Below, piece by piece: positions 1-24,208 of a stretch of 64,000 nucleotides of DNA (positions are counted from its first letter, which is position 1; every line of letters begins with the position of its first letter). A program made the translations under genes and the position numbers. The notes beneath the pieces were generated by a model that saw nothing but the letters and a program-made list of their open reading frames with translations, was not told the DNA's origin and did no database searches. The DNA lies in assembly GCA_041653835.1 (NCBI GenBank), contig JBAZEP010000001.1, positions 19,082 through 83,081 of the forward strand, read 5' to 3'. Source of the DNA: Candidatus Omnitrophota bacterium. GTDB lineage: Bacteria; Omnitrophota; Gorgyraeia; Gorgyraeales; Gorgyraeaceae.

Positions 1-214
1 TTCCCATTTTCTCAAAACTCTCCCTGGAAGGTACCGTACCCGTGAGAGTAATAAATTTTTTCATGTCGCTTATTTTCCGCTCAAGCTCTTCGTCAATTAT
101 CGAATTGCCCTCTTTAAGGAACGGGCTGAGGAAGAATATGTATATTCCCGCCAACGCGGCAAGGATTATAAGCCCCTGCTTCAGCATATTCTTTTCTTTC
201 GGCATTTTTGCCAT
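1..214 (-). CDS. PilO-like pilus assembly protein, N-terminal part (gene continues beyond the window start)
   Basis: Minus-strand ORF has ATG at 214..212, 3 nt downstream of the pilM-pilN stop, and is not in the ORF track because it runs off the window. Own translation gives MAKMPKEKNMLKQGLIILAALAGIYIFFLSPFLKEGNSIIDEELERKISD..., a single TM helix followed by a coiled-coil-like segment, as in PilO/PilN. Confidence 0.35.
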   Translation of the reverse strand, partial: MAKMPKEKNMLKQGLIILAALAGIYIFFLSPFLKEGNSIIDEELERKISDMKKFITLTGTVPSRESFEKMG

Positions 215-215
215 A

Positions 216-1739
216 CTAACTCCCCGTCAGGACAACATCCATAGTAATGCTGAACTTCACTATCTCTTCGCCCGTATTCCTGTCGTTCTCCACCGAAGAC
301 GATACCGGCCGCACATCCCCAAAGCCCGGCAGTCCTTTAAGGTTAGACACGAAATTATTTACCGATTGATAAGAAAGCGCCTTTCCGTTAACGTCCATAC
401 GGCCGACCCCGTCTTTTTCCAGCGATATAACGCCCGACAGGTCCGTGATCCAGACGTCTTTCGGAAGTATCTCCGCGACAGCGCCGAATATGCCCAGCCA
501 GACAGCCCGTGAAGAAGCTGTCTGGTATAGCGATCGCATCTTGCTCCTCAGGACACTCTCTTCTTCTCGTATATCCTTTATCCTGGGCTCATATACCCTG
601 TACGTCTCTATCATCTCCTCTATCTTGTCCAGCCTGCTCTTCTTTATATAATAATCCTGCCTCGCGAATATAGAAAGGCTGATGACTATCATCGCGGCCG
701 CTGCTATCGAAAATCCGGAATAAAGGCGTTTTTGAAAAACCGATTTTTTCTCAAGAAGCGTTTCTTTGAGGAAATTGACTTCTATCCTAAGGCCGGTCAT
801 GCCCCTGAGCGCGGCGCCAACGGCAACGGAAAACTGGCTCTTGAGCCCGCTTGCCTGAAGTTTCTGGAACACGTCTTTGGATATCCTGAGTTTCCTGAAG
901 GGATCCATGATCCTGGGTTTTACATTAAACCTGGAGGTAAAAGCGGATTCCACTCCCTCCATAGTGCTTCCTCCCCCTGTCAGGAAAAACTGTTCTATCC
1001 TCTTATCCTGCGGTGCCTCTTCCCCCGCCTGCATGAAATAATATTCCAAAGACCTTTCCACTTCCGCGATAAGTTCATCCACGCCCTGGCCCTTGGCCTC
1101 CTCTATACGTTCGCCCGCTATAGGAAAACTCCTCAGCCATACGTTACCTTTATTGGATATGATAAGATTGGTGGACTTCGCGCCTATATCGAGTATCGCC
1201 CCGGGAGCTTCATCGTTGAAATCCTCATTGAACAGCATGCAGTTATAAACGCTTATCGGCGCCACATCTATCAATTCCGCGGACAGCCTGACGGAATCAA
1301 GCTTTAAGACTATTTCTTCCACAATATTCTTTTTTATAGCCACTATAACGGCCTTTTTGGAGGTCTCCTTGCTTTTATTCAAAAAAGACCAGTCCCACAT
1401 AACCTCGTTAAGATTAAAAGGGATCTGGTTCTGGGCTTCGAATTTCATTGTTTGTTTTAATTTGTCTTCCTTTATATTAAGGAGCTTTATGAACCTCACG
1501 AAAACCGACTGGCCGCTTACGGATATGTTTACACTACCGGCCTTTATGCCGTTCTCCGATAATAATTCGGAAATAAGCTGTACAGTAACCTTGTCTTTGT
1601 CAAGCTTCGGGTCTTTAGGTATCTCTTTTATGCCCGCCCTGGTAAGCAGAATGCTATCCTTGTCTTTTTTGAGTTCGACGAGCTTTATGAAACGCGAGCC
1701 TATATCCAGGGCTATAGAACTTGTCTTGAATACAGCCAT
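216..1739 (-). CDS. pilM: Type IV pilus assembly protein PilM fused to a PilN-like membrane/coiled-coil domain
   Basis: 507 aa. The N-terminal ~340 aa is an actin-like ATPase fold of PilM type (ALDIGSRFIKLVEL..., ILDIGAKSTNLII). It is followed by a TM helix (FSIAAAAMIVISLSIF) and a coiled-coil C-terminus typical of PilN/PilO. Confidence 0.7.
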   Translation of the reverse strand: MAVFKTSSIALDIGSRFIKLVELKKDKDSILLTRAGIKEIPKDPKLDKDKVTVQLISELLSENGIKAGSVNISVSGQSVFVRFIKLLNIKEDKLKQTMKFEAQNQIPFNLNEVMWDWSFLNKSKETSKKAVIVAIKKNIVEEIVLKLDSVRLSAELIDVAPISVYNCMLFNEDFNDEAPGAILDIGAKSTNLIISNKGNVWLRSFPIAGERIEEAKGQGVDELIAEVERSLEYYFMQAGEEAPQDKRIEQFFLTGGGSTMEGVESAFTSRFNVKPRIMDPFRKLRISKDVFQKLQASGLKSQFSVAVGAALRGMTGLRIEVNFLKETLLEKKSVFQKRLYSGFSIAAAAMIVISLSIFARQDYYIKKSRLDKIEEMIETYRVYEPRIKDIREEESVLRSKMRSLYQTASSRAVWLGIFGAVAEILPKDVWITDLSGVISLEKDGVGRMDVNGKALSYQSVNNFVSNLKGLPGFGDVRPVSSSVENDRNTGEEIVKFSITMDVVLTGS

Positions 1740-1925
1740 CTATTTTGTCCTTCCCATTATGGCCCTCAATCTCTTTATATCATCTTCTGTATATTCCCTC
1801 CACCCGTTAAGCGCGTTCCTCCTGGCAGGCGGGAATAACTTTCTGTTCTCATATCTTACGAGCGTCTGTTTCGATATGCCCAGAAGCTGGGCGGTCTGGG
1901 TAACAGAATAATATTTTTCTTTCAT
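1740..1925 (-). CDS. Small HTH DNA-binding protein (MerR/excisionase-type helix-turn-helix), 61 aa
   Basis: Sequence MKEKYYSVTQTAQLLGISKQTLVRYENRKLF... has an HTH_17/MerR-like N-terminal helix-turn-helix. An SD GAGGTGG lies 7 nt upstream of ATG 1925..1923. The ORF track starts further upstream at 1997 but no RBS supports that start. Its stop abuts the pilM start, so the two are translationally coupled. Confidence 0.6.
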   Translation of the reverse strand: MKEKYYSVTQTAQLLGISKQTLVRYENRKLFPPARRNALNGWREYTEDDIKRLRAIMGRTK

Positions 1926-1974
1926 ATATGCCACCTCGCTATTTAATAACATGTTTAGCTCCATAGACAATTCA

Positions 1975-2029
1975 CCCCATTCCAAATCTGATAGCAAGTT
2001 TCCGGCTATCTATTAGATTTGGAACGGGG
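1975..2029. repeat. 55-bp palindromic leader element with terminal inverted repeats CCCCATTCCAAATC...GATTTGGAACGGGG (copy A)
   Basis: Arms CCCCATTCCAAATCTGATAG / CTATCTATTAGATTTGGAACGGGG form a ~20-bp stem. It lies in the 5' leader of the HTH-pilMN operon and shares its termini with the element at 7197-7252. Confidence 0.6.
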
Positions 2030-2082
2030 ATTTTCTATATCAAAAACCTAAAAACAGCATGTATCCTGATACAGAGTGATAC

Positions 2083-2111
2083 AACTATATACTATCTGAT
2101 AGTATTTGTCA
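2083..2111 (-). promoter_or_regulatory. Sigma70-type promoter TTGACA-N17-TATAGT with a perfect 13-bp palindrome ACTATCAGATAGT in the spacer (candidate operator)
   Basis: Minus strand reads TTGACAaatactatcagatagtaTATAGT. The -35 box is at 2106-2111 and the -10 box at 2083-2088 in plus coordinates. The palindrome at 2091-2103 shares the CTATC(A/T)GATAG motif with the leader hairpin at 1975-2029. Confidence 0.45.
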
Positions 2112-2130
2112 AGATAACGGGGTAAAAATA

Positions 2131-2167
2131 GTGACTAGTGACTAGTGATTAGTAGCTGGTAAGTGGT
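2131..2167. repeat. Tandem degenerate heptamer repeat (GTGACTAGT GACTAGT GATTAGT AGCTGGT AAGTGGT)
   Basis: Five consecutive 7-mers with the pattern RNYWRGT lie between the stop of the 615-aa gene and the HTH promoter. Confidence 0.4.
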
Positions 2168-2186
2168 TTGAAATAAATGGGTTGAG

Positions 2187-4034
2187 TTATTCTTCTTTCC
2201 AGAACCTGAAAGGCTTCTTTTTTTCCGGAACAGGCTTTACAGCTCCTTTTTCGCTTATGGTCCAGGTCCTTTCCGCTGGAGAAGGATCCATTTCATCGAG
2301 ATCTATCTTAGTGTTCTTGTTGACATCCTTGGCGGATTGGACCTTAAAATAGTGGTTGCCTTCTTTCAGATCCTTTCTTGTGACAGAGGTATCTTTGACC
2401 CAGCCGGACCATTCCTCATCGTCAAACTTCCACCTGAACAGGCAGTCTTCAACGCTCCCTTTGAACGTAAAAAGGGCTTCTTTGGATTTTGTCCATAAGC
2501 TCGGCCCGCTTGTAATTATGGTATCGGGCGCTATTATTATAAGCTCTATAGTATCGCTGTATATCTCGGATTCGTTCCCCGCCATATCCTTGAATTTTAT
2601 ATATACCCTGCGGGTACCGCTTATAGGTGTAAGCGTCCAGTTTTCTTTCCTGGTCTTAAATGATTCCCATTGCTCGGTATCGAACACGCCGTCGTTTGAA
2701 AGCACCATACCCTGGACCTCTGTAGTAGAATCAGTGGCGCCAAGCATAAGATTGACATATACGGAATTCGTGACGGCATCCTGATTATTTATTATAAGAT
2801 ACCCCGCGGGGCCTTTCGTATCGACCGTGAAGCTCCACACTACTTGGGATGCCTTATTGCCTACAAAATCAGCGACTTCCAGGGAGATCACGTTCTCGCC
2901 TTCGCTAAGCGGTACAGAGGGGATATATACCACGCTCTGCGCTTCATCATCATACGCGGCGTTTACATTGGATTTATTTACCTTCATATTTATGGCGTCC
3001 GGATTCACGCCGCTCTTGTCATCCGTGGCGCTAATGGTAACGGTCGGCTTATCATCAGCCAGGATCGAGCCCCTGGAAGGAGAATAGCTGCCTATGACAG
3101 GGCTGCCCCTGTCTATCCATAATTCAAAAGAGGCTATATCTCCCCAGTTACCGGCTGAATTCTCGGCCTTGATGCTGAATACCCTTACCCCGTCCCCGAG
3201 AAGGTCCTGGGGAGTCTGATAAAAATACCCGGTTGTATCTATCTCATTATCCGGGATATCGCCCCACGCGTAACTATAGCCTACGGGCTGGGCGCCTTCC
3301 GTAGGATATTCCCAATATATGTACGGATCCCCGCAGTCCTGCCATAATTTAGCTGGTATGTTTTGCCCGCCGGGCGCGGTCTGCGCCCATACCACAGGCA
3401 CCTCGATCTGGCCTGACGCTATCTTGAACCCGTTTACGGCGGTTTCCCAGCCTGAATAGTCATACCCATCGCTTACCCTCACCCGCCATTTGTAATCCAC
3501 ATAACCTTCCGTGGTAGGAAGTATGGGCGTGGTATATTCCTGGGAACCGGATTTGATTATGCCGGAATCAACTTCTATTGTCTGAAAATTATTCTTGGAT
3601 AGCTGGACATGGTAATAACGCTGGGGGTCTTCATCCTTATCCGCGACAGCCCATTTAAGCGTCGGGGGGTTGTTAAGCGTAGGCTGTCCGTCGTTATACG
3701 CGGTTATGGTCAAGCGGGGTATGGCATTTTTGGTGGAAAGCAGCCCGCCGTATATCTTGTAGCTGGTGCCCGCGACAGCCCCGGTAGCCAGGGCGGAACC
3801 AACGCTGTTCTCGGCGTTATAACTTTTCGAAACCACGCTCGCGCCTCCGCTGTCCGCCACGCCGGTATGCAGCTTATAATTTTTACTGCTGGATACGCTG
3901 GCCGTTACTATGCCGGAAAAAATAAAAAAGACCGCTGTTAAGAACACAACGGCCTTCAATATAAGGTATCTCTCTGGTTTAAATCGGCTCATATTTAAAT
4001 CAATTATATTCTCACAATATAAAAAATCAAGCAA
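2187..4034 (-). CDS. Membrane-anchored cell-surface protein, Thr/Ser/Gly-rich beta-rich repeats, function unknown (pilus-locus associated)
   Basis: 615 aa with an N-terminal TM/signal anchor (LILKAVVFLTAVFFIFSGIVTA) and a long extracellular region with Ig-like/beta-sandwich character. No catalytic motif was recognised. It is co-oriented with and 9 nt downstream of the GspK-like gene. Confidence 0.45.
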   Translation of the reverse strand: MLDFLYCENIIDLNMSRFKPERYLILKAVVFLTAVFFIFSGIVTASVSSSKNYKLHTGVADSGGASVVSKSYNAENSVGSALATGAVAGTSYKIYGGLLSTKNAIPRLTITAYNDGQPTLNNPPTLKWAVADKDEDPQRYYHVQLSKNNFQTIEVDSGIIKSGSQEYTTPILPTTEGYVDYKWRVRVSDGYDYSGWETAVNGFKIASGQIEVPVVWAQTAPGGQNIPAKLWQDCGDPYIYWEYPTEGAQPVGYSYAWGDIPDNEIDTTGYFYQTPQDLLGDGVRVFSIKAENSAGNWGDIASFELWIDRGSPVIGSYSPSRGSILADDKPTVTISATDDKSGVNPDAINMKVNKSNVNAAYDDEAQSVVYIPSVPLSEGENVISLEVADFVGNKASQVVWSFTVDTKGPAGYLIINNQDAVTNSVYVNLMLGATDSTTEVQGMVLSNDGVFDTEQWESFKTRKENWTLTPISGTRRVYIKFKDMAGNESEIYSDTIELIIIAPDTIITSGPSLWTKSKEALFTFKGSVEDCLFRWKFDDEEWSGWVKDTSVTRKDLKEGNHYFKVQSAKDVNKNTKIDLDEMDPSPAERTWTISEKGAVKPVPEKKKPFRFWKEE

Positions 4035-4043
4035 AATGTGGCA

Positions 4044-7000
4044 TTAACGTTCAAAGACCACCCAGATTTTCTTTTCGGAAAGGACCTTGCTTCCTTCCAG
4101 CACCTGGCCCGTCACTATGATCCTGTAGCAATCCGAATGCACCGTGACAAGGTTCGATATCTGCTTGAACCTGTTCTTTTTATCAGCGTCATTGGAGCCT
4201 AACGCGTGCGTGGAAATAAGGTCGCCTATGCCTAAATTAAGGCCGTTCTTATTGCCGAACACCCTGTTATTGATGATATTATCCGCCGCGGCGTCATCTA
4301 TGCCAGGCAGCGAGTTTAGAACATTTTTGGAGGCTGTATTCACGTTTATCCTGCCGTATAAATTATTAACGGGATCCAGCCTTATGAAATCGAAATGCGC
4401 CGCGCCTGTCTCGGACGCGTTCCTTACCTTTATTTCCAGGACATTTTCCGGAGTGGAAACAGCGCTGCCGGTGCCTATCTCTACATTCCCGAATGTTATC
4501 CCGTTATCGGGCCCGGGCGTGAGAGCGGGGGTAAAATCAGTCCACGTCTCATCCGCGAGGCGCATCGATACGGCTACAGCCTCGCCCTCTTCACCGAATA
4601 TTTTCAGCCTGTAATGCCCGTTTTCCAAACCGTCCCCGGCATCCCACTTCCATGTACCTGTGGAATCTTTTTTTCCGCTTTCGCACCGGTCCGTAAAAGG
4701 CTCGGCCCTCTGGACCACCTTCCATCCGCCTTCGGAACCTTCGACAAGATTGTTTTCCGCTTCCAGCCTGGCCCCGAACACCGTAAGCCTGTCCGCTATC
4801 TTGGCGATATCCTCCAGTGATAACATTTTCCATGGCTCCATCCCGAGCGATATAAAAGCGATCTCGCCGATCGACGAAAAATTCTTATTCTTTACGCTGG
4901 TCTCGGTATCATAGTGCTCGATGATCTCCTCGCCTATCTTTTCTTTCATCCCGTCATTGTTGTTGGCAAGCCCGGGCGTACCTCCTTTTTTAGCCAGGCA
5001 GGCGTACCAGTTATCCGGTATGCCGTTACTATTCGAATCTACGGCGTAAGCCGGATCTGATTTTTCCAGCGCTTTATAATCCGCCACATTGCCTGAGAAA
5101 TATTCCTGCTTGTCCACTATATGGCCCATGGGGTCTTTGAGGGTTATAAAATTCCCTCCCATGAAAGAGCTGTCGCCCAATAGATCAGAGCCCGGGGAAA
5201 CAGCTCTTAAAAAATGCAGCGCCGCGGATTTTTCTTTGCCCCATATTGAAACAAACGATATGCCGTTACCGTTTATGCCTCCCTGCGTATCATCCTTATC
5301 CACACAAAGAACAAGATGTTCATGCGGCCCTATGACTGTCCCGAGAGGGACGGTCGCGGGCCAGCCTTCCTTGCTCGGGCCCTCTACGGTCCACCCGTCA
5401 ATAGAAACCTCTTTCGGCGTCAGGTTTATCAACTCTATATATTCCGCGTCGGGCGCCTGGCTGAGTTCTATGGCCCTGAAATATGTAGAGCCCGTCTCCC
5501 TGTTATTCTGTATCCTTACCGTAAGCTTTCCGCTCGAAACAACCGCCGCTTTCCCGCCCCCGAACAAATCCCCGTCCATGACATTGGAAGAACGGCTGCC
5601 CCCTATCTCCACATCGCCTATTTCCTGGCCGCCTGAACCGCTGAACAATTTTATGTAATATTTTCCATCGGGCAGGTCCTTCCATGTCCATTCGCCTTCC
5701 CCTGTCTTGCCGCCTCCATGCTCATCGTTCTGATAGAATCCGTTCTGCCATACCCAATCCCCGCCCGGGTCCTGGCCGCTAAAAACACTCCTGGAAATAG
5801 CCGGCCTTATCATTACCTCATTTATCCTTATACCTTCCACGCCCCTTATTTCAGCCACGCTGAAATTCTGCTGGCCCATCCTGGGATATAATTCGAGATA
5901 GGAAAAATAGGACGGGTTCCCGGAACTGTTCTTGACGGAGAGGTTCAATATCTTGTTTTCGAACGAAATAGTCCCTATCCTCAATATCTCGCCGTGCCTT
6001 ACTGAATTCTGGGTCATGCCGTTTACGGTAATGTCGCCTACTGCCTCATCTTTGACACCGAACACACCTATATAGTATTCGCCTTCCGGCAGGTTGACCC
6101 AGGTAATGGCATAAGGCTGGCCGTCTTTCACATCGCTTTGATAACAACTGCCTTTCCAGAGCCAATCGCCTACCGGACCCCTGTTCACGGCAGCGAGCCT
6201 GTTATATAATTTAGGTATCAGGCTCTGGCTGAAATCGCTGTCGCAGGCGTCTATTATGTTTACCGCTTTCTGGAAAGGGTCGCTCACGCCCGCGTCCTGA
6301 AGCAATATGGCGAGCGCCTGGCTGTCCATCGAATTTATATTATTTTTCAACCTGCCTTCCACGTCCAGATTTTTGTCGAGCGAATAAGTAGTTATATAAG
6401 CGTATATTTTCGTCAAATCCTCCCTGGAGATGGATTTTATCTTGCTTATCTCAAAAGGCGTTTCAAACGCCCTGTCATCGCCATAAAGATCCAGAGGGTT
6501 ATATTCCAGGGGCTCGTCTATACCCTCGCCCGCCTCGTCCACTATGCCGTCCGAATTATTATCTATGCCGTCGGAATCTAGTATCCGCTGGTTCCGGTTA
6601 TCATCCACATCCGCCTCGCCCGGCTGGCCGTCAGGCCCATACCTGAAACCAACGATATCTTCATAAATAACTTCGGGTTCTTTTAACCCAAGGGAGGCTA
6701 TAAACTCTTTCAAGTCCAATTCATGAGGCATCCATCCTTCCGTGACCTTCAGGGGAGAAAGATTATGCTTATAAGCGAGGTTTATGTCCAGGAAAGCGGT
6801 CTCATCCTTGACTAAAACAGCGTATCTGCCCGTAACCTCGCCTTCCTCATCGTACACGTTCAGCCATTTCGAATCAGCGGTGCCATCGCCGTCATTATCG
6901 ACATCGCTTCCGGCAAAAACCGTATGCCATTTGTCCTCAAAACTGTCTATATCCCTGCCATCTTCTTTCAGGACCTGCCGGGCATATGTAACGCCTGCCT

Positions 7001-7154
7001 GCGCGAGGTATGACGCCCTCGTAGCTTCCAGGTAGTTGCCGGCAGCCTTGAGGTCGAGTCTCATCGTAAACGCGAAAGATACTGCCATTATACCCGCTAC
7101 AGCCAGAATGCTGATAACAAGTATAAGCGCGATCCCTTTATTTTGCTTGATCAT
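4044..7154 (-). CDS. Giant GspK/PilX-like minor pseudopilin with inserted lamin-tail-like domains and a C-terminal helix-hairpin-helix
   Basis: The N-terminus MIKQNKGIALILVISILAVAGIMAVSFAFTMRL is a GspK-type pseudopilin helix. The C-terminus RINVNTASKNVLNSLPGIDDAAADNIINNR matches the GspK HhH motif. The middle holds repeated IRINEVM.../EYIELINLTPKEV lamin-tail-domain-like segments. Start was moved from the ORF-track 7217 to ATG 7154. Confidence 0.6.
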   Translation of the reverse strand: MIKQNKGIALILVISILAVAGIMAVSFAFTMRLDLKAAGNYLEATRASYLAQAGVTYARQVLKEDGRDIDSFEDKWHTVFAGSDVDNDGDGTADSKWLNVYDEEGEVTGRYAVLVKDETAFLDINLAYKHNLSPLKVTEGWMPHELDLKEFIASLGLKEPEVIYEDIVGFRYGPDGQPGEADVDDNRNQRILDSDGIDNNSDGIVDEAGEGIDEPLEYNPLDLYGDDRAFETPFEISKIKSISREDLTKIYAYITTYSLDKNLDVEGRLKNNINSMDSQALAILLQDAGVSDPFQKAVNIIDACDSDFSQSLIPKLYNRLAAVNRGPVGDWLWKGSCYQSDVKDGQPYAITWVNLPEGEYYIGVFGVKDEAVGDITVNGMTQNSVRHGEILRIGTISFENKILNLSVKNSSGNPSYFSYLELYPRMGQQNFSVAEIRGVEGIRINEVMIRPAISRSVFSGQDPGGDWVWQNGFYQNDEHGGGKTGEGEWTWKDLPDGKYYIKLFSGSGGQEIGDVEIGGSRSSNVMDGDLFGGGKAAVVSSGKLTVRIQNNRETGSTYFRAIELSQAPDAEYIELINLTPKEVSIDGWTVEGPSKEGWPATVPLGTVIGPHEHLVLCVDKDDTQGGINGNGISFVSIWGKEKSAALHFLRAVSPGSDLLGDSSFMGGNFITLKDPMGHIVDKQEYFSGNVADYKALEKSDPAYAVDSNSNGIPDNWYACLAKKGGTPGLANNNDGMKEKIGEEIIEHYDTETSVKNKNFSSIGEIAFISLGMEPWKMLSLEDIAKIADRLTVFGARLEAENNLVEGSEGGWKVVQRAEPFTDRCESGKKDSTGTWKWDAGDGLENGHYRLKIFGEEGEAVAVSMRLADETWTDFTPALTPGPDNGITFGNVEIGTGSAVSTPENVLEIKVRNASETGAAHFDFIRLDPVNNLYGRINVNTASKNVLNSLPGIDDAAADNIINNRVFGNKNGLNLGIGDLISTHALGSNDADKKNRFKQISNLVTVHSDCYRIIVTGQVLEGSKVLSEKKIWVVFER

Positions 7155-7196
7155 GTTTTCATTATACAAAGCGGGCACAAGATTTGCAAACAAAAA

Positions 7197-7252
7197 CCCC
7201 GTTCCAAACCTATGCAAATCTCTTAGAGCTTACATCCAGGCTTGGAACGGGG
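7197..7252. repeat. 56-bp palindromic leader element CCCCGTTCCAAACC...GGCTTGGAACGGGG (copy B)
   Basis: It has the same terminal 12-14 bp as copy A at 1975-2029. It lies 43-98 nt upstream of the GspK-like start codon, an equivalent position to copy A. Confidence 0.6.
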
Positions 7253-7279
7253 CACATTGCTTACATGAAACTGGTTTAT

Positions 7280-7954
7280 CTATTTTCCTTTTAACTTATC
7301 CACTAATTCCTGTATCAATTTTCCGGCTATATCTTTTGAACCTATCCCGACAGCGAGCGCGAATGCCAGGCCTATGCTCCCGAGCAAAACCGTAATAGTA
7401 GTGTTCAGTATAGCGGTCGCTATGCTCAACTGCTCCAGCGTCATGATAACCGCGAATATGACTATCACGGTCTGCGTTACCTGGCTGAGCAATTTCGCCT
7501 GTTTTATGCCGGCGTTCATGGAAGCGGTCATGACTATCGAGCCTACAATACTCGCGAAAAATATACCGAGCGAGATTATGAAAATAGCCGCGATGACATT
7601 AGGTATGTATAATATGACCTTATCCAGCAGGGACGCGACTACCGTCATGCCGAGCGCATTCAGGGCCGTCATGAATACAAGAAGCATCACTATCCAATAT
7701 ACAAGCCCGCCCATTAATTCCGAAAGCGTGTTTTTTATTCCGCCTCTTCTCAATACGTCCGCGAGCCCTGATTTTTCGCTGGCGGTGTCAAACTGTATCA
7801 TCTTCAGCAGTTTGACCACTACATTCTTTAATACAGCCGCGATAATCCAACCTACCACAAGTATTACAAGTATCCCTATCAAGGTAGGTAAAAATGTGGC
7901 TGCCCTCACCAACATAGCCTTAACAGGCTCAATCACTATCATATTCCAATCCAT
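7280..7954 (-). CDS. Polytopic membrane protein with repeated conserved TM helices (MscS-associated TM_helix-like)
   Basis: 224 aa with about 6 predicted TM helices and repeated motifs (LLDKVILYIPNVIAAIFIISLG..., LEQLSIATAILNTTITVLLGS...). The family assignment is tentative. Confidence 0.35.
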   Translation of the reverse strand: MDWNMIVIEPVKAMLVRAATFLPTLIGILVILVVGWIIAAVLKNVVVKLLKMIQFDTASEKSGLADVLRRGGIKNTLSELMGGLVYWIVMLLVFMTALNALGMTVVASLLDKVILYIPNVIAAIFIISLGIFFASIVGSIVMTASMNAGIKQAKLLSQVTQTVIVIFAVIMTLEQLSIATAILNTTITVLLGSIGLAFALAVGIGSKDIAGKLIQELVDKLKGK

Positions 7955-7987
7955 ACACTACCCCCCTTTCTGTTCTTTAATGAGCAC

Positions 7988-8134
7988 GTCACTTATGGAA
8001 CGAACGAAGCGAGTGAACATAAGTGACTGCGCGAATTAAATACTTGACATTTTTCTATTGTTTTAACCGCTGGAAAAATGTCAAGTATCAAATTCAGCCA
8101 TATGACTTACGTCGTTTCACTCCGTAAGTCATGG
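7988..8134. repeat. Cluster of three perfect intergenic hairpins between gpmA and the membrane-protein gene
   Basis: H2 is GTCACTTATG/CATAAGTGAC at 7988-8027. H1 is ATACTTGACATTTTTC/GAAAAATGTCAAGTAT at 8040-8088, a 16-bp stem. H3 is CATATGACTTACG/CGTAAGTCATGG at 8098-8134. H3 contains the 14-mer CTCCGTAAGTCATG that recurs at 27048-27061. Confidence 0.55.
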
Positions 8135-9019: not shown

Positions 9020-12000
9020 TTATAAATCAGTCGCGCGGTGCTTACCGTTCAATCCATTGTGGTTCTTGAGTATCGCGTTGGTACTGGGGTTTCCAAGCCA
9101 TATATCTCCTACCTTCCACGTAAGAGCGCAATCCTCTCTTTTAATTCCTTTCAATCTTACAAGATATACAGCTTGCCCATTATAAAAATGGGTCAATTCC
9201 AAAGGGATAGTCATCCATGCCGCGTTATCCGGGGTATCAGGAGAGGACAAGGCATTGGTCCTCACATACACCCTTGGCGGCTCTATGCCTGGGGCTATGC
9301 GCAGGTTAATGGATATATCTTCATAGCCGTCACTCAGATCCACCAGCATAGTATCTCCCAAAGAAGGGCTTACGCCGGAGATCTGAATGCCATAGACAGA
9401 AAGATTCACATTTGCGGCTGTCATAGCGTTATTGCGGGGCGCAAGTTCTATATCAAAGGTATCTTTTCCTTTTATTTCATCGCTCCACCACGCAAGATAC
9501 GCGGCCATTTCATTGAGAACATTCAGTTTCCGGCTTAATGGTATGGAATTCACTTCGGTCAAGGCATAAGCATTACGATCTCTATAATATAAGTCTATAT
9601 CTTTTTCCATCGCTTCCCAAAACGCCTGTTCTGTATTATCATAAGGCACTATCACATTGACGCCTACCTTGCCGTGAAGCTGGGTGCCGCCTTCTATCCA
9701 TGGAGCCGCCAGCTGTTTTCCGCCGTTGTCAGTAACAGCGGATTCTTTATATTCTTCCGCGCCTGTTCTTCTTCTTGAAACCTGGACCTGCAACTGTGTA
9801 GCCGCGAGAAGCACTCTTTGTTCATCCGGGGTAAACTTATCAACCAGGATAAACGTGCCCTTATAAACTGAATTATTTCCGTTTTTATTCTTGTCGTTTT
9901 CTATCTCTTCTGCCAATTCTTTCAGTTCTTTATAAACACGGATGCTCGGTTCATAAGGCTGAACATTGCCGAATATTATTACCTGGGCGCCTTCTTTTAC
10001 AGACCTTCTTATATTCTCTTTGGTAAATGCCTTTAGGTCTTCGGTGCCGCCTTGCTCAGGGTTGCCCTCTCCGATACCCAACTTCTCAGGAACACACCTC
10101 CCGCTATATGATATGATGAATTTTTCTGGGTCAATATCCAGATATCCTGAAATAATCAATGGCTTACCCCTCTTTTCTTTCAGCATATTTAACAGGCTTT
10201 CTTTCGCCTTCTTATCAGCGGATATCATTTGACCCACAGTAGGATGTTCTACATCCGCGCCAGGATACAATTCCAGCAATATTTTACGGAATTCTTTCGC
10301 CGATAGTTCCCGTAAGTCCCCGTTCGCTAGGCCGCGTAAAGGCCGCGCGTCAATATAACTCATTTCAAATGCCTGTATGCGTGAAACACCGCTGGGCATA
10401 TGGGATGTCCTTAACCCAACACTGCTGTCATCTACGATAATCTCTCCATTATCAAGTTTTCTTAGATAAAGGTAATGATATGCATCATCGATATACCTTT
10501 TATTTTTTAAGAATTCCCTCACCTCTTCGATAGACTTAAAATGTTTGAGCACCCTGTTATTATAAGTATGCGTGAAACCGGACACCGGTATTTTGGCCAA
10601 AGTTTTGTATTTCCCCGGATCTTTTTGATATAAAAATCTCCTGTAAAATGCGGCAGGAAGCACCTGGCCGTCGTGCAGGCTCAGTAAAACATCTTTCCAG
10701 CCTTTCTTCCCCATGGTTTTATCCGCCATTTCAGCCATCCTGTTTGTCAAAACAATGACCGCCGATGAGAAAAAATCCGTAAACTCATCCTGCGCAACCC
10801 TGCTGTCTTCCTGATCATATTTATAGAGCTTGCCCACATAATATCCATCTTTGTCGCGGACTAAATAATCCTCTATCTCAAATATCTCTATGTCTCCCTT
10901 TTCATTCGGCACTTCTATTTGTTTGATGCGCATATAAACTTCGCACTGAAGAGTTCTACCTCTAAATTCGACTTCCAGATCATCCATTATCTTTTTTCCT
11001 GGATCCTCATTAAAATCATTATAATAAGGCTCTGCCCACACCAATCTCGCTTTATCTTTTACAAAACGTTTTATGGCTACACTCTTGAAAACCGTAACCC
11101 TGCCAAGGCCTCCTGCCATGCGGGAAATCTCGGGCGCGGCAATAACAATGGTCTTTCCTATGATATTCTTCGCGTATTTCTCGAGCCACTCATCCGGTAT
11201 TTCGGACGACGGCTGTAAGGTAAGCCTGATAGTGTTAAATATAGGGTGGTTATAAAATTCTCCGGCCTTATTTCCAAGGCCATAATCTTTTTCAATATCA
11301 GAAATGTCTTCTATAAGTTTATTTTCCGAAGATTTGTCCATTGTGGAAATAGCGTCCCATATAGGATAATACGCCTCGACAGGATAATAAGACCAGAGTT
11401 TCTGGGCATGTTCTTCATAACCTAAAAGTATGGCCATAAGCTGGGACGGGCGGCCAAGCTTAGACATTATCTCTTTTCTTATATAGTCATAGTCATTACA
11501 CCATAGCGCCGCCTTTTGTTTTTGCGCTTTATTAAAAATCCCGTAAGACCCATTATCCTTTGTAACCAGGCCTGCCGCCGAGAGCTCATCCAGTAACCCC
11601 GCGACATATTCCGCGGAAAGCTTTACATCTTGTTTTAAAATTCCCAGGGCCTTCATCTCAGACTCAAGTTTTTCCTTTATCCCTTCGGCTGTCACAGAAC
11701 CTTTTCCTTTTAAAACCATATTTAAAGCCGCCTGGAGTTTTGACCACTTCGGCTCTGTCACGACCTGCCCGCTCCTGAGGAATAAAAGCGCGGCAGGGTC
11801 CATCATGCCCCTGGATAGTTTATCTTTTTCAATTACCCGGATATCCGCCCTGTAACGATTTTCCTTCAAATCAACGCAGAACGTATACATCTTCATGCTG
11901 TTACTGCCCGTCTCATCCTTCAGGTCGATCTCTATGATTTTCTCATACTCATCGACCACAGACTGCAGCTTCACCTCGACCTTCCCTTTATGATCTAAAA

Positions 12001-18058: not shown

Positions 18059-18817
18059 TCAAATTATATCGACGCTGGTATCGGGGATCCAGCCTTTTAA
18101 ATCTCCGGAAAGATCGATTTCATACCATCCCTGGGCCTTTTCCAGGACAACAATCTTCGCACCTTCATGAAGCGTAAATTGCACAAGATAATCTTCTTTT
18201 GGCCCGCTGCGCGCGTCTACCTTTTCAGCCGTTATGATCCCCTTTTTTATGAAATCCTCATCCCTGATCTTGGCGGCTAAAAATATAAGGGCGGCAAATA
18301 ATACAACTCCGAGAGAACCGGCAGCATAAAGCATGCCTTTTCTTCTCGCAACAAAAAAAATGGAAAGGATCAAAAGCAGTATTACGGCAAGATAAAAAAA
18401 TGAGCACGCCGCAGTCAATTCGTCCAGAGATACCCTGTCATAAAGGAAAGCCGCGGCGTCAAGGATCAGCCCCCTCTCTCCGGCGCTTATTTTATCTACG
18501 GCCGCAGAGCGGGCGATCTCCAGGTTGAACCTGATATTCCTGTCACGCGGCGCTTCTCTCAACGCCCTCTCATAATTCAAGATGGCTTTGCCTGTCTTTT
18601 TTAATTTATAATAACTGTTGCCTAAATTGTAAAATACCTCCGGGCTGACCCTGTCCATTTTTATGAGCTGTTCGTAAAAAGAAACGGCCTTGTCATAATC
18701 CCCGTCTTCATAACACGCGTTCCCTTTTTCATACAACCCTTCCGGACTGTCCGCCGCCTTCAAGCTCCCGGAAAACGCGAAAAACATCAAAAGACAAAGA
18801 AGCGGTATATTCCTCAT
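18059..18817 (-). CDS. batE: BatE-like aerotolerance protein (TPR repeats + TM + C-terminal SH3b domain)
   Basis: Signal peptide and TPR repeats (YYNLGNSYYKLKK) are followed by a TM helix and a C-terminal SH3-like domain. It is the last gene of the Bat operon, with a 4-nt overlap with batD. Confidence 0.7.
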   Translation of the reverse strand: MRNIPLLCLLMFFAFSGSLKAADSPEGLYEKGNACYEDGDYDKAVSFYEQLIKMDRVSPEVFYNLGNSYYKLKKTGKAILNYERALREAPRDRNIRFNLEIARSAAVDKISAGERGLILDAAAFLYDRVSLDELTAACSFFYLAVILLLILSIFFVARRKGMLYAAGSLGVVLFAALIFLAAKIRDEDFIKKGIITAEKVDARSGPKEDYLVQFTLHEGAKIVVLEKAQGWYEIDLSGDLKGWIPDTSVDII

Positions 18818-20622: not shown

Positions 20623-20628
20623 ATCCCA

Positions 20629-20665
20629 AAGGCGACAAAAATGACACTGTCACTTTTGTCGCCTT
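20629..20665. repeat. Core-palindrome element copy 1: 12-bp perfect stem AAGGCGACAAAA/TTTTGTCGCCTT around TGACACTGTCA
   Basis: Intergenic between batC and batD. Sequence is aaggcgacaaaa-aTGACACTGTCAc-ttttgtcgcctt. The same 11-nt core recurs at 36827-36837 and 49265-49275 inside different perfect stems. Confidence 0.7.
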
Positions 20666-20676
20666 ACGTAGTGTCG

Positions 20677-21441
20677 TTACCAGTCTTTATCCACTCTATA
20701 CCGGCCTTCCGCAGGCCTCTTCCTTAACTCTTCCTGTAAATCTTTTTCGTCATCCTTTACCGCGTCCAGGAGCCTGACCGCGTCTTCTCTGGACATCTGC
20801 TCTTCGCGCTCTGCTGTAGAAGGCTTTTTCTCGGCACCCTCAGTCTCAGGCTTTTCTTCCCCGGCGGACTTCTGTTTATTTTCCTGCATCCCGTTCCCTT
20901 CTTCGGGTTTTTCCTGTTCCGCTTTCTGCCCCTGTGCTTCCTGCTGTTCAGCGCTTTTCTGTTCTTGTTTTTCCTCTTCCCCTTTGCCTTGTTCCTGCTT
21001 AGATTCCTGTTCCTTCTGTTCTTCCAGCTTCTTTTTTATGAACTCTATATTATATTTAGCGTCTTCGTCATCCGGATTTATCTCAAGGCTTTTTTTATAA
21101 TCCTCTATCGCCTCGGGTAATTTTCCCATCCTGTAATGCGTATTGCCCATATTATAATACGCCTTTTGCCGGAGTTCACTATCTTTTGAATCAAGTGTTC
21201 TTTGGTATTGGTTGAACGCGTCTTCATATTTCTCCAGCTCGTACAGGCCGTTGCCTATATTATAACGGAGCTTCCCGTTCTCCGGATTTTCCGTCTGCGC
21301 CTCGCGCCATTTGGACAGCGCCTCGTCGATCTTCCCTTCTTTATAGAGCCTGCCCGCCTCTTTATTCTTCGAGACAAGGGAATCGCCCCAAGTCCAGCCA
21401 AGAGTTGAAACACAGAATAAAAATATCAGCGCGAGTCTCAT
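20677..21441 (-). CDS. batC: BatC-like TPR-repeat protein with Glu/Lys/Gln-rich low-complexity C-terminus
   Basis: Signal peptide and TPR repeats (YYNMGNTHYRMGKLPEAIEDYKKSLEINP) are followed by an acidic low-complexity tail. Confidence 0.7.
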   Translation of the reverse strand: MRLALIFLFCVSTLGWTWGDSLVSKNKEAGRLYKEGKIDEALSKWREAQTENPENGKLRYNIGNGLYELEKYEDAFNQYQRTLDSKDSELRQKAYYNMGNTHYRMGKLPEAIEDYKKSLEINPDDEDAKYNIEFIKKKLEEQKEQESKQEQGKGEEEKQEQKSAEQQEAQGQKAEQEKPEEGNGMQENKQKSAGEEKPETEGAEKKPSTAEREEQMSREDAVRLLDAVKDDEKDLQEELRKRPAEGRYRVDKDW

Positions 21442-22439: not shown

Positions 22440-22447
22440 AAAAACTC

Positions 22448-23455: not shown

Positions 23456-23467
23456 ACCCGCATTGGG

Positions 23468-23980
23468 TCACCCCAATGCGGGTTTGGGGGTGGTCACATC
23501 TACAATCTCTTCCGCTTTTTTATATGCCTCTTCTGTTTCTTCCACGGCAGGCGTATATTTCGCGAATTTAACCATATCGCAGTCTTCAAGAAAACTATTT
23601 ATCGTGTCCGCGTGCCGGCGTTCCATGCCTGTAGACCTCATCTCCTGAAAAAGCTCCCACGTAGTCCTGTCCATGGCGGATATGACAAACCTGTTTTCTA
23701 TATATGCCCTGATTATATCCGAAAGCCTTATATAATATTCTTTGATCATTCCTTTTTCCGCGAGCCGCATGCCTTTAAGGGCATTTAAAGCATCCCTGGC
23801 TATCTCATCCGCCGGCCTCGGGGACAGGGAAGGCCCCTCTTTTTTCCTTTTTTTAATCCTAAAGTACATAATGACTGCTGTTATGATAAGTAACGCTAAA
23901 AGCAAAGCAAGAAGCCGGGCAAGCGGAAATTTCCCGGCTATATCCACAATGTCTTTTAACGGCCTTATATCATCATTCAT
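23468..23980 (-). CDS. Small membrane protein of MoxR-VWA operons (DUF4381-like)
   Basis: 170 aa with one N-terminal TM helix and a cytoplasmic helical domain. It sits between the DUF58 and VWA genes, as in described Bat operons. Confidence 0.45.
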   Translation of the reverse strand: MNDDIRPLKDIVDIAGKFPLARLLALLLALLIITAVIMYFRIKKRKKEGPSLSPRPADEIARDALNALKGMRLAEKGMIKEYYIRLSDIIRAYIENRFVISAMDRTTWELFQEMRSTGMERRHADTINSFLEDCDMVKFAKYTPAVEETEEAYKKAEEIVDVTTPKPALG

Positions 23981-24198: not shown

Positions 24199-24208
24199 AA
24201 TATCACCT

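Follow-up and report, generated by a model that had tools for sequence, protein, structure and literature searches.

Four open reading frames make up the locus, all of them on the minus strand and found in the list of open reading frames where the original prediction had put them (Table 1). They encode a 1036-residue GspK/PilX-like minor pilin (hereafter the giant pilin), a 601-residue protein with a string of immunoglobulin (Ig)-like domains, a 70-residue MerR-type helix-turn-helix (HTH) protein and a 507-residue PilM-PilN fusion. Judging from this gene content, the locus is part of a type IV pilus/type II secretion-like gene cluster of Omnitrophota.

The genes continue beyond the left edge of the window (the whole 64-kb stretch of DNA that was analysed), which cuts a PilO/GspM-like gene. 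Inspection of the flanking genome, suggested earlier as a check, placed further genes of the cluster just past this edge. On a longer contig with the same genes (L001), the PilO/GspM-like gene encodes 253 residues and is followed by a 189-residue gene in the PilP slot and by a secretin gene with a TPR-STN-Secretin_N layout, which starts ~1.3 kb past the edge. The PilO-like protein also matches Pfam T2SSM_b, the STN and Secretin_N domains were both found, and the PilP-slot protein has a weak match to HofP (E 0.04). Of the type IVa parts, PilM, PilN, a PilO-like protein, a PilP-slot protein and a secretin are present; the window has no ATPase. The original prediction had noted that the window holds neither a major pilin nor a secretin: the major pilin is indeed absent from all 64 kb, but the secretin is lacking only because the window stops short of it. 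Scanning the full 64 kb also gave no GspI or GspJ, no pilin with a Glu5-containing signal and no GspE, GspF, GspG or PilT. Since the major pilin, GspI/J, the ATPase and PilT are all lacking in the window, these partners are unseen in this genome, and a pilus is indistinguishable from a pseudopilus here.

Table 1. Features of the locus, by position in the window.
Feature	Position	Strand	Basis
PilO/GspM-like gene, first 71 codons, cut by the window edge	2..214	-	continuation on longer contig (same genes)
Gene, 507-aa PilM-PilN fusion	216..1739	-	Pfam PilM_2, PilN
Gene, 70-aa MerR-type HTH protein	1740..1952	-	Pfam MerR_1, E 3.6e-11
Second long hairpin, stem base CCCCGTTCCAA/TTGGAATGGGG	1975..2029	-	-31.2 kcal/mol, z -7.2
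Sigma-70-like promoter match TTGACA-17-TATAGT	2084..2112	-	11/12 consensus match; best of the region
Gene, 601-aa Ig-string protein	2187..3992	-	ATG 3992; Pfam Big_13, E 4.6e-9; homologs; model
Gene, 1036-aa giant GspK/PilX-like modular minor pilin (stop codon included)	4044..7154	-	ORF, identical NCBI protein, AlphaFold, Foldseek
Residues 934-1036: HhH part of alpha-domain and last two pilin beta-strands	4047..4355	-	Pfam HHH_3, T2SSK; model strands 1009-1035
Module M3, residues 807-933, third, more divergent copy	4356..4736	-	hhalign M1 vs M3 98.3%, M2 vs M3 98.6%
Small alpha/beta linker, residues 713-806	4737..5018	-	model secondary structure; no family match
Lamin-tail domain, residues about 567-712, single	5019..5456	-	Pfam LTD; Foldseek
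Module M2, residues 432-566, second copy, GDWxW ... GxYY ... YFxxIEL	5457..5861	-	hhalign; Foldseek CBM6
Module M1, residues 312-428, first beta-module copy	5871..6221	-	hhalign M1 vs M2 99.9%, E 1.3e-36
Residues 65-310: first pilin beta-strands and first half of GspK alpha-domain, conserved acidic loops	6225..6962	-	model, homolog conservation
Residues 1-64: leader ending at Gly7 (MIKQNKG/IALILV...), hydrophobic alpha-1 pilin helix, no Glu at +5	6963..7154	-	model helix 5-64
Sigma-70-like promoter match TTTGCA-18-TATAAT	7161..7190	-	10/12 consensus; pattern match only
Long hairpin with U-run	7197..7252	-	-37.3 kcal/mol, z -8.1

The distal of the two promoter matches lies directly upstream of ATG 7154, and the hairpin beyond it is probably the terminator of the upstream Msc-like gene, which it would separate from the pilus genes. 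The stronger match is situated in the 234-bp gap ahead of merR-pilMN, suggesting two transcription units. The second hairpin is in the merR-pilMN leader and has the same stem base as the first; it is not conserved in relatives.

The giant pilin starts at ATG 7154. The 1057 residues first assigned to it counted from a TTG within the hairpin that probably terminates the Msc-like gene; full-length homologs are nearly all of 1027-1066 residues (the closest 1034-1039) and an identical (100%) NCBI protein from a metagenome-assembled genome also has 1036. The claim that it is about three times the usual GspK size holds at the corrected length (GspK has about 280-330 residues). Members of the family were traced in at least 181 species-level genomes; at NCBI some copies go by GspK or by 'lamin tail domain-containing', and some homologs carry precomputed PF03934 or PF21687 matches. 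The giant GspK is phylum-wide in Omnitrophota. Calling the locus atypical was thus an overstatement, the PilM-PilN fusion being usual in three phyla and the giant GspK phylum-wide and partly annotated at NCBI.

The GspK core of the giant pilin

The AlphaFold model (pLDDT 89.5, pTM 0.86) has the fold of GspK, that is, a pilin fold with an HhH-containing alpha-domain set into the beta-sheet. The N-terminus, MIKQNKG followed by IALILVISILAVAGIMAV, has the class III-type signal of GspK, a short leader with Gly at its end and then some 20 hydrophobic residues lacking Glu at +5, with processing predicted after the glycine. Kyte-Doolittle hydrophobic windows cover 4-15, and Gly7, Ala9, Val13 and Ser15 are almost invariant among 47 homologs. 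The missing Glu5 is normal for GspK. NCBIfam T2SS_GspK (NF037980) matches over profile positions 2-83 (E 4e-17, 62.6 bits against a cutoff of 130) and Pfam T2SSK (PF03934) reaches 20.9 bits against 24.2; PilX_N and HHH_3 match besides, and Pfam N_methyl (IPR012902) gives no match. The GspK and T2SSK scores, as well as that of the lamin-tail profile below, are all under their curated cutoffs. Foldseek retrieved XcpX/GspK structures (9a1f_T, 6utu_C, 5vtm_X and 3ci0_K) with a probability of 1.00, although the insert keeps the TM scores low (0.35-0.44 on the target). The pseudopilin helix and the C-terminal HhH motif, both parts of the original prediction, are thus borne out by the alpha-1 helix, the sub-cutoff T2SS_GspK match, the Foldseek results and an HhH motif, RINVNTASKNVLNSLPGIDDAAADNIINNR, at residues 935-964.

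Conserved Asp-rich stretches are found at residues 84-91 (DVDNDGDG) and 193-215 (DSDGIDNNSDGIVDEAGEGIDEP). The prediction had seen them as inserted calcium-binding stretches; they exist, but they sit in the GspK core and alpha-domain, outside the inserts. Solved GspK/XcpX proteins bind 2-3 Ca2+ (PMC6211770), and by analogy the acidic loops of the giant pilin are putative metal-binding loops.

The HhH region also brings in a competence reading, whereby the tip pilin would capture DNA through a ComEA-like HhH and the lamin-tail domain (see below) and retraction would bring the DNA to the secretin. When the family profile was searched against PDB sequences, the HhH region scored better with EEPD1 (E 5.7e-7) and ComEA (E 1.2e-3) than with XcpX (E 2.6e-3; 5vtm_X residues 172-223). 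NCBIfam comEA matches the giant pilin weakly, and one homolog carries the JGI name 'DNA uptake protein ComE-like'. Bacterial lamin-tail domains are often fused to extracellular nucleases, and several competence pili use tip minor pilins, such as ComZ, as DNA receptors. However, every GspK alpha-domain has this HhH, on which T2SSK and the XcpX segment both align, as part of its structure, so that the motif does not discriminate. Moreover, ComEC, ComF and DprA were not found in or near the operon (the window and 75 loci, with a query set without com-specific queries), and the CBM6-like modules of the insert have no obvious DNA-binding role. We regard DNA uptake as distinctly unlikely.

Modules nested in the core

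The GspK alpha-domain is interrupted by a nested insert of some 620 residues, made up of three CBM6-like modules (M1-M3), one probable lamin-tail domain and a linker. Structure prediction of the inserts, likewise suggested as a check, gave three CBM6-like folds and one lamin-tail fold. The Pfam LTD profile (PF00932) matches once (E 3.9e-7; 30.8 bits, gathering score 34.3), a precomputed match to it is recorded for most homologs, and Foldseek aligns the domain with the lamin A/C Ig domain 3gef (probability 1.00, TM 0.58). M1, M2 and M3 are mutually homologous (hhalign probability 98-99.9%) and show no homology to the lamin-tail domain (0.6-1.9%). The repeated lamin-tail-like modules of the original prediction were therefore misassigned: there is a single probable lamin-tail domain, and what repeats is an unrelated, family-specific CBM6-like beta module in three copies.

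M2 matches the CBM6 structures 2cdo/2cdp (Foldseek probability 1.00, TM 0.6-0.67). The resemblance is one of fold only. Pfam gave no match for 23 module sequences, a PDB sequence search with the module gave nothing significant (malectin was best, E 0.2), and the modules fall outside CBM6 at the sequence level, where sugar-binding residues could not be mapped. M1 is missing in 17 of the 47 aligned homologs. Mean pairwise identity is 0.40-0.46 in the inserts compared with 0.43-0.50 in the core. The inserts, being conserved like the core, are thus under purifying selection, and this evenness argues against a rapidly evolving host-range adhesin.

Partner proteins and gene order in relatives

The 507-residue protein was described in the original prediction as PilM and PilN fused in one chain, and so it is. 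An actin-like PilM part (residues 1 to ~315) is followed by the PilN-type motif VNFLK (321-325), a single transmembrane helix (~339-360) and a periplasmic PilN part to residue 507. Both Pfam domains exceed their gathering scores (PilM_2, PF11104, E 3.6e-34, 118.7 bits; PilN, PF05137, E 1.5e-10, 41.4 bits). The match to NCBIfam Amuc_1101_fam (NF045709; E 7e-71, 239.9 bits) stays below the cutoff of 650, which makes the fusion, as far as profiles can tell, a relative of the Amuc_1101 family and not an equivalog. Fusions of this kind are frequent among Omnitrophota, Verrucomicrobia and Planctomycetota (Planctomycetes). The stop codon of the MerR-type gene abuts the pilMN start, and the gene keeps this position in ~30 Omnitrophota loci.

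The open reading frame after the giant pilin gene, put at 615 residues and called membrane-anchored in the prediction, exists, but it most likely starts at ATG 3992 and encodes 601 residues. A signal or anchor helix (residues 7-24) is followed by a flexible linker of ~65 residues with conserved NYKL/YKIYGG motifs, then by five Ig/FN3-like domains in tandem (93-580) and a tail with the conserved sequence KKPFxFWKEE. The helix resembles a cleavable Sec signal (...TAS/VSS), so that membrane anchoring is not established. The model (pLDDT 79) has five Ig-like domains, for which Foldseek returned generic Ig strings only, such as SiiE and GhpA. More than 100 homologs were found, and the named ones are nearly all from Omnitrophota. 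The protein would be a conserved accessory. Two identities were considered and rejected. PilY1 was dismissed as only Big_13 and Ig-like matches were obtained, with no C-terminal beta-propeller, and the CPR Pam pilus tip pilin PamT (NF058579) as the score was 28.6 bits against 240 and covered residues 27-105 (signal and linker) only.

Across related loci, PilMN is present in 38 of 45, the 601-residue gene lies downstream of the giant pilin gene in 36 of 45, and at least one secretin occurs in 27 of 34, two in 24. The PilO-slot protein of one relative has a weak Pfam Amuc_1100 match. In more distant relatives the giant gene follows GspF, GspI-like and GspJ-like genes, directly so in 27 of 51 related loci, an order absent in this window, and the I- and J-like pilins there both carry G/FTLIE signals. 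An outgroup locus reads GspE-PilT-GspE-GspF-GspG-GspG-H-I-J and then the giant gene.

In the present clade, the giant gene stands apart from GspF, I and J and instead heads an operon with the Ig-string protein and PilMNOP-secretin.

Gene order bears on the proposal that the giant pilin is a cell-surface or periplasmic protein that re-uses a pilin-like helix as an anchor, outside any filament. The lack of Glu5 and of a Pfam N_methyl match, the sub-cutoff scores and the separation from other pilin genes in this window would fit. Yet GspK normally lacks Glu5, the complete GspK fold is kept, with the pilin sheet closed by its terminal beta-strands, and the synteny with I-/J-like pilins and GspF extends across the phylum. 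We consider a stand-alone anchored protein very unlikely indeed.

The cluster could also encode a type II secretion pseudopilus, which would secrete folded proteins (glycoside hydrolases or the very large Omnitrophota proteins), with the GspK head staying periplasmic as a piston face or as a platform for docking substrate or secretin. The fused PilM-PilN shares the topology of GspL. The best HMM and fold matches of the giant pilin are to GspK/XcpX, the outgroup major pilins match Pfam T2SSG, as the PilO-like protein does T2SSM_b, the even conservation of the inserts fits an internal partner, and Omnitrophota T2SS/T4P genes flank giant-protein genes and glycoside hydrolases (bioRxiv 10.64898/2026.06.07.730766). 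Against this, the platform proteins match PilM_2, PilN and PilO, not GspL/GspM; within the fusion, PilM is complete and actin-like (TIGR01175, 126 bits, cutoff 133); PilT homologs lie in or near the cluster of several relatives (L003, L040, L041 and L074); GspC with its PDZ domain is absent; and lectin-like folds in a 115-kDa head do not fit easily with a periplasmic piston. A secretion role is, in our judgement, unlikely.

Discussion

We propose that the locus probably encodes parts of a type IVa-like pilus whose modular tip pilin bears a ligand-binding, probably glycan-binding, head. To the gene content, folds, domain order, conservation and synteny described above, this proposal adds what we infer from them, namely location at the tip, extrusion through the secretin, the binding of a ligand and its nature. 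A giant subunit at the tip, as originally suggested, with a role in adhesion or ligand binding, is the best-supported reading, given the GspK identity, the head folds and the synteny.

In solved GspK complexes, the alpha-domain faces outward, with the filament behind it. The 1036-residue protein would be a GspK/PilX-type minor pilin that caps the filament, its helix and beta-sheet anchoring it in a tip complex with GspI- and GspJ-like pilins. As the insert is borne by the outward alpha-domain, the filament would present a large multivalent ligand-binding head at its tip. The most likely ligand would be a glycan or cell-surface polymer, and the head might serve in attachment to surfaces or to host or prey cells, or in polysaccharide capture. 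Alignment and passage of the outer membrane would fall to the PilM-PilN fusion, the PilO-like and PilP-slot proteins and the secretin(s). In type IV filaments the HIJK complex forms the cap, and modular pilins carrying lectin or vWA modules have been demonstrated by experiment to be tip adhesins (PMC8179133, PMC9934059 for the adhesins). In Omnitrophota, type IVa pili are near-universal and have been proposed for host attachment (PMC10066038).

Several known systems provide comparisons. First, the capping subunits of the H-I-J-K tip, GspK/XcpX and PilX, share with the giant pilin a Gly-ended leader and an alpha-1 helix without Glu5. Also shared are a sheet interrupted by an HhH-like alpha-domain, acidic loops where GspK binds Ca2+ and, in relatives, the gene order after I- and J-like pilins; the giant pilin differs in its length, its nested residues and its sub-cutoff scores. 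Second, in modular type IV pilins (Streptococcus sanguinis PilB with vWA and PilC with lectin modules, CofB, ComZ), a pilin carrier displays at the tip grafted modules that bind ligands, carbohydrate-binding folds among them. As defined by Raynaud et al. 2021, such a protein combines a pilin module with extra non-pilus domains, which describes the giant pilin. In the examples given there the modules are C-terminal, attached via a short linker, whereas in the giant pilin they are nested in the alpha-domain and the chain then completes the pilin fold. Since the giant pilin lacks the IPR012902/N_methyl signature, the modular-pilin survey would have missed it. The accessible parts of Raynaud et al. 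2021 and Shahin et al. 2023 name neither an LTD nor a CBM6-like architecture for modular pilins.

Third, PilY1/PilC, the non-pilin tip adhesin of type IVa pili (about 110-120 kDa), is large like the giant pilin, tip-presented as the giant pilin is predicted to be, and equipped with variable binding modules and Ca-binding motifs. The slot of the 601-residue gene after a K-type pilin is the place of pilY1 in fimU-pilVWXY1 operons. However, both the giant pilin and the 601-residue protein lack the PilY1 beta-propeller; adhesin function appears built into the pilin here, and the giant modular pilin would take the role of the separate adhesin PilY1 in classical type IVa pili. Fourth, Akkermansia MUL2 (Amuc_1098-1102, with Amuc_1101 and Amuc_1100) resembles the locus in its long PilM-type protein, adjoining secretin and PVC-related lineage, but no giant GspK is described for it, and its own role in mucin handling is a proposal. 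Fifth, Verru_Chthon cassette protein A (TIGR02600, about 1300 residues), which is encoded with prepilin-type cassette proteins, aligns by its own N-terminus with that of the giant pilin (E 1.3e-5), but over 59 residues only and with 23 bits against a cutoff of 332.

A fuller version of the pilus proposal, which we put forward tentatively and consider doubtful as a whole, would be a phylum-wide Omnitrophota filament variant with a nested adhesin of three lectin-like modules and a lamin-tail domain in the capping pilin, an Ig-string partner, fused PilMN and two tandem secretins, with which these ultra-small, possibly host-dependent or predatory bacteria would grip the cell-wall glycans of host or prey or reel in polysaccharide, the latter as suggested for Akkermansia MUL2. 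The locus adds no new kind of machine: its components can be recognised, PilM-PilN fusions are frequent in PVC-related phyla and some copies are publicly named GspK. Being conserved across the phylum and partly annotated, the cluster is a variant of a known system.

Omnitrophota are widespread uncultured nanobacteria, whose suspected host dependence has been argued largely from type IVa pili (PMC10066038). The giant pilin is likely the business end of such a pilus, a conserved 115-kDa tip pilin with putative ligand-binding modules that can be expressed and tested, and these modules offer a concrete route to what Omnitrophota cells attach to. The idea of the modular pilin is extended as well, in that the GspK alpha-domain can host nested modules, and proteins built in this way are missed by signature-based catalogues. 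If glycan gripping proves true, the M module would be a new carbohydrate-binding family.

Gene starts and transcription units

The ORF analysis bore out four consecutive minus-strand ORFs at window positions 1–8000, with the sizes originally stated. They are listed in the table, together with the neighboring signals and the genes that follow the PilM-PilN fusion gene (pilMN) on a longer contig. The start of the giant gene was revised. The TTG at 7217, from which the GspK-like pseudopilin had been read as 1057 aa, falls within a hairpin that most likely serves the channel-like gene as its terminator; a promoter-like match precedes the ATG at 7154, and full-length homologs are nearly all 1027–1066 aa long (the closest, 1034–1039 aa). 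We therefore take the protein to be 1036 aa long. The 1036-, 601- and 507-aa forms all have 100% identical counterparts in one Candidatus Omnitrophota MAG at NCBI (WC312_00100, WC312_00095).

Features of the giant-gene locus in window coordinates, with the genes that follow pilMN on Logan contig L001
Feature	Position	Strand	Description
Channel-like gene	7280–7954	minus	224 aa; related to mechanosensitive channels; directly upstream of giant gene
Stable hairpin, then U-run	7197–7252	minus	−37.3 kcal/mol, z −8 (folding)
Sigma-70-like match TTTGCA-18-TATAAT	between hairpin 7197–7252 and ATG 7154		putative promoter, pattern match
Giant GspK ORF	4044–7217	minus	1057 aa from TTG; 1036 aa from ATG 7154
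Ig-string ORF	2187–4034	minus	615 aa from TTG; 601 aa from ATG 3992
Sigma-70-like match TTGACA-17-TATAGT	2084–2112	minus	best promoter-like match of region; putative, pattern match
Second hairpin	1975–2029	minus	−31.2 kcal/mol; stem base same as hairpin 7197–7252
MerR-type HTH ORF	1740–1997	minus	85 aa; 70 aa from ATG 1952
PilM-PilN fusion ORF	216–1739	minus	507 aa
Further gene, cut by left edge	2–214	minus	first 71 codons in window
L001 gene 1	after PilMN		253 aa; PilO and T2SSM_b domains
L001 gene 2	after gene 1		189 aa; PilP slot by position; weak HofP match, E 0.04
L001 gene 3	after gene 2		at least 641 aa; TPR, STN and Secretin_N domains; secretin

The giant gene and the 601-aa gene are spaced by 51 bp, and the 234-bp gap after the latter holds a promoter-like match and the second hairpin; the MerR-type gene, pilMN and the next gene then follow with gaps of 0–1 bp. 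Judged from this sequence layout, the co-transcription claimed for the Ig-string gene (then read as 615 aa) is likely with the giant gene, and merR-pilMN and the later genes likely form another block, the two probably having separate promoters.

The first hairpin, immediately upstream of the giant gene, and the second, within the merR-pilMN leader, share the stem base CCCCGTTCCAA/TTGGAA(C/T)GGGG, an 11-mer with 6 occurrences in the window versus 1.4 expected. The shared motif is not kept in related loci, with the exception of one inverted pair (L020 13361–13460), and its reading as a conserved MerR-like operator was rejected as a general feature because relatives lack it. The MerR-type HTH protein itself, 62–105 aa long and without an effector domain, is found between the Ig-string gene and pilMN in about 30 loci (for example, L004 9399–9611); its stop adjoins the pilMN start in the window, and the two genes overlap by one base in L020. 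A DNA-binding protein within a pilus-platform operon is unusual, and this one may autoregulate the pilMN operon.

A GspK fold with a nested insert

The N-terminus of the giant protein, MIKQNKG followed by IALILVISILAVAGIMAV, has a short leader that ends in a nearly invariant Gly and then a hydrophobic helix lacking Glu at +5; this is the pattern of GspK. At the other end, Pfam T2SSK and HHH_3 align to the motif quoted in the original prediction (residues 935–964); the pseudopilin helix and the C-terminal HhH of that prediction are both supported. Two stretches match NCBIfam T2SS_GspK, one of them the first 80 residues (E 4e-17, 62.6 bits, cutoff 130), and some homologs also match PilX_N and T2SSK_1st. 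An AlphaFold2 model built on 47 homologs (pLDDT 89.5, pTM 0.86) comprises a 60-residue alpha-1 helix, pilin strands at 81–117, a helical region at 148–304, four beta domains, HhH helices at 943–999 and two final strands at 1009–1035. When this model was searched against the PDB with Foldseek, XcpX/GspK was matched in four entries (9a1f_T, 6utu_C, 5vtm_X and 3ci0_K; probability 1.00, 16–19% identity), from which we conclude that the GspK fold is kept. That the giant protein should be a mere membrane anchor appears very improbable. In the model, the chain exits the alpha-domain after ~310 and re-enters it at ~934.

A rival reading is a competence pilus whose tip would bind DNA. In its favor, ComEA/EEPD1 outscore XcpX as matches to the HhH region, but every GspK has this motif, and we regard such a role as quite unlikely.

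The Asp-rich, putatively Ca-binding stretches noted earlier are present and conserved (DVDNDGDG at 84–91 and DSDGIDNNSDGIVDEAGEGIDEP at 193–215), but they had been placed in the insert; instead, they fall in the core of GspK and in the alpha-domain's first half. Since solved GspK and XcpX structures bind two to three Ca2+ ions (PMC6211770), Ca binding by the giant protein is plausible, by analogy, as an ordinary GspK trait.

One lamin-tail domain and three family-specific modules

Self-BLAST detected no internal repeats in the giant protein, and profile-profile comparison of sub-alignments was therefore required to reveal them. Three homologous modules of ~115–135 residues were found, M1 (312–428), M2 (432–566) and M3 (807–933), with pairwise homology probabilities of 99.9, 98.3 and 98.6%. 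The intervening region 567–712 showed a probability below 2% with each of them; it is the only lamin-tail domain (LTD), scoring 30.8 bits with Pfam LTD (gathering score 34.3), with a match in most homologs and a fold matching lamin A/C (3gef, probability 1.00). The repeated LTD-like modules first described were thus wrong in kind: there is a single LTD, and M1–M3 are unrelated to it.

The M modules carry the signature GDWxW, GxYY, GDV and YFxxIEL, and in the predicted structure of the inserts they resemble CBM6 carbohydrate-binding modules at the fold level (2cdo/2cdp, probability 1.00, TM 0.6–0.67). Their profile gave nothing significant among PDB sequences or in Pfam. A search of 1.84 billion representative proteins recovered near-complete modules mostly in proteins of 800–1100 aa, usually with 2–3 copies each, and all six that were scanned with Pfam (P0359, P0369, P0371, P0378, P0389 and P0410) are GspK/LTD/HhH proteins or fragments. 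In the many very long proteins, the match is confined to the GxYY hairpin of ~30 residues; of these, P0348 was scanned, and it contains a CHU_C type IX secretion signal domain along with domains of the DUF2141/CarboxypepD_reg type. A tie of the module to enzymes was considered and not borne out, because the scanned proteins with near-complete modules are all of the GspK/LTD/HhH type and the long proteins share the hairpin only. M1 is absent in 17 of the 47 homologs. Conservation is about equal inside and outside the insert, with mean pairwise identities of 0.40–0.46 for the inserted regions versus 0.43–0.50 for the pilin core.

The Ig-string protein

The 601-aa protein begins with a hydrophobic helix (7–24) followed by TAS|VSS, which looks more like a cleavable Sec signal than a stable anchor. 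A low-confidence linker of ~65 residues with conserved NYKL and YKIYGG motifs leads to five Ig/FN3-like domains (93–580), one of them Big_13, and to a conserved KKPFxFWKEE tail. Of the membrane-anchored beta-rich protein predicted originally, the beta-rich part stands and the anchor may not. Fold searches returned generic Ig strings only (SiiE, GhpA, titin), and homology to PilY1 was rejected as the protein has no propeller.

Signal and linker (residues 27–105, window 3680–3914), with the motifs SSSxNYKL ... YKIYxG, give a local match to NCBIfam CPR_pilus_PamT (E 8.7e-7, 28.6 bits, cutoff 240). PamT has been proposed as the tip pilin of Pam, a newly described chaperone-type pilus in CPR bacteria. 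The match is too weak and too local for membership, which was rejected; it may reflect a shared strand/linker element, or chance. Named homologs of the 601-aa protein are all ‘hypothetical’ and come nearly all from Omnitrophota MAGs, with one partial sequence labelled Anaerolineales; more distant matches are unrelated multi-domain proteins that share Ig-like domains only.

The pilus platform and its secretins

PilM and PilN are fused in one 507-aa chain as predicted, with both Pfam domains above their thresholds (PilM_2 118.7 bits, PilN 41.4 bits). The PilM part extends to ~315 and is followed by VNFLK (321–325), a single TM helix (~339–360) and a periplasmic PilN domain. We take VNFLK to correspond to the N-terminal INLLP peptide of PilN that PilM binds, and the overall topology is shared with GspL of type II secretion systems. 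Among curated families, PilMN comes closest to the NCBIfam ‘Amuc_1101 family PilM-like pilus complex protein’ (E 7e-71, 240 bits, cutoff 650); with a score so far under the cutoff, it is a relative of this family, not a member. The fusion is real but, contrary to the original view, not atypical in this part of the bacterial tree: fused homologs of 480–800 aa, named PilM at NCBI, are usual in Omnitrophota and are found in Verrucomicrobia and Planctomycetota too. We found no description of natural PilM-PilN fusions in the literature.

The window was said to hold neither major pilin nor secretin. The first absence stands: a regular-expression search of all six frames of the 64 kb gave no Glu5-type pilin, and tblastn with GspE, GspF, GspG, PilT and I/J-like queries had no match there. 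The second is a window-edge effect, since contig L001 (9383 bp), which carries an identical PilMN gene and reaches 3.2 kb further, has a secretin downstream of it.

Of the 34 loci that extend far enough, 24 carry two distinct secretin genes in tandem after PilMNOP (e.g., L002 9156–13153 and L008 18486–22500). The first encodes ~830–900 aa with TPR, STN, Secretin_N and Secretin domains, and the second ~500 aa with FecR_C/STN, Secretin_N and Secretin.

Gene order across relatives

Relatives of the giant protein are encoded in 181 genomes (GTDB, one genome per species). Synteny was compared across 75 loci, with blastp run against the window proteins and a classical outgroup locus. Of the 45 with enough downstream sequence, 36 have the 601-aa gene after the giant gene and 38 have PilMN downstream; at least one secretin was found in 27 of 34. 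Among the 51 loci with sufficient sequence on the other side, GspI-like and/or GspJ-like pilins with canonical G|FTLIE signals precede the giant gene in 27, usually with GspF before them, and another 21, the clade of the window, have the channel-like gene upstream in place of pilins. In distant MAGs labelled ‘bacterium’, the giant gene closes the series GspE-PilT-GspE-GspF-regulators-GspG-GspG-H-I-J-K and so occupies the K position; in the window’s genome it stands apart from these pilin partners. The window has no ATPase, no major pilin and no PilT by which a pilus could be told from a pseudopilus in this genome. A non-extruding type II secretion pseudopilus is considered unlikely.

The 224-aa channel-like protein consists of two ‘MS_channel_1st_1’ TM repeats only (NCBIfam msc 90.9 bits, cutoff 100), without the MscS cytoplasmic domain. 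In L027, a 371-kb contig of a relative in the window’s clade (66% identity), a second, compact type IV pilus-like cluster (1–7700) lies 2–10 kb upstream of the giant gene. It encodes PilB, PilC, a 149-aa major pilin, two minor pilins, a second PilM-PilN fusion (530 aa), PilO- and PilP/GspC-like proteins and a 398-aa PilX_N protein with a bactofilin/hexapeptide-like beta-helix, and it has no secretin.

Elsewhere on the minus strand of the window, a 1618-aa ORF (9020–13876) has a short alpha-amylase catalytic-domain match at residues 345–379 and no other Pfam match at E ≤ 0.01. A GH5 cellulase gene (52542–53753) overlaps the start of a 1096-aa ORF (49286–52576) that has no Pfam match at E ≤ 1e-5. 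The Bat/MoxR-type cluster at 18059–26091 (MoxR AAA_3 ATPase, DUF58, BatA-VWA, VWA, TPR, BatD and a TPR-SH3 protein) is an ordinary one, with no relation to the giant-GspK locus.

A proposed modular tip pilin

The tip complex of type IV filaments is made up of the H-I-J-K minor pilins, with K as the cap, and filament assembly begins from this complex (PMC9934059). Experiments have shown that pilins bearing grafted lectin or vWA modules act as adhesins, and ‘modular pilins’ of this kind are widespread (PMC8179133, PMC9934059). We propose that the 1036-aa protein would be a modular K-type tip pilin, the alpha-domain of which would present three CBM6-like modules and one LTD as a multivalent head; it would unite the roles of PilX and of the separate adhesin PilY1 of classical pili. 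The specialized filament with a giant tip subunit originally suggested is hence favored, by analogy, as far as the tip pilin goes. The modeled fold points, weakly, to a glycan or cell-surface polymer as the most likely ligand. Because the insert is evenly conserved, its ligand or partner seems more likely to be a conserved one than a fast-changing host receptor.

All parts of the locus are recognizable individually, and some copies of the giant protein are already auto-annotated as ‘GspK’ or ‘lamin tail domain-containing’. Several features are distinctive: ~620 residues nested within the GspK alpha-domain; two or three copies of a module that is specific to the family and folds like CBM6; the conserved pairing with the Ig-string protein; the incorporation of a small HTH gene into the pilMN operon; and two tandem secretins. 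We found no description of the giant GspK architecture in the literature, and none of the terms GspK, lamin and secretin occurs in the Omnitrophota papers. The modular-pilin survey relied on the N_methyl signature (PMC8179133); the giant protein has no such signature. Type IVa pili are almost universal in Omnitrophota, where attachment to host cells is their proposed role (PMC10066038), and the giant protein provides a testable handle on what these pili bind.
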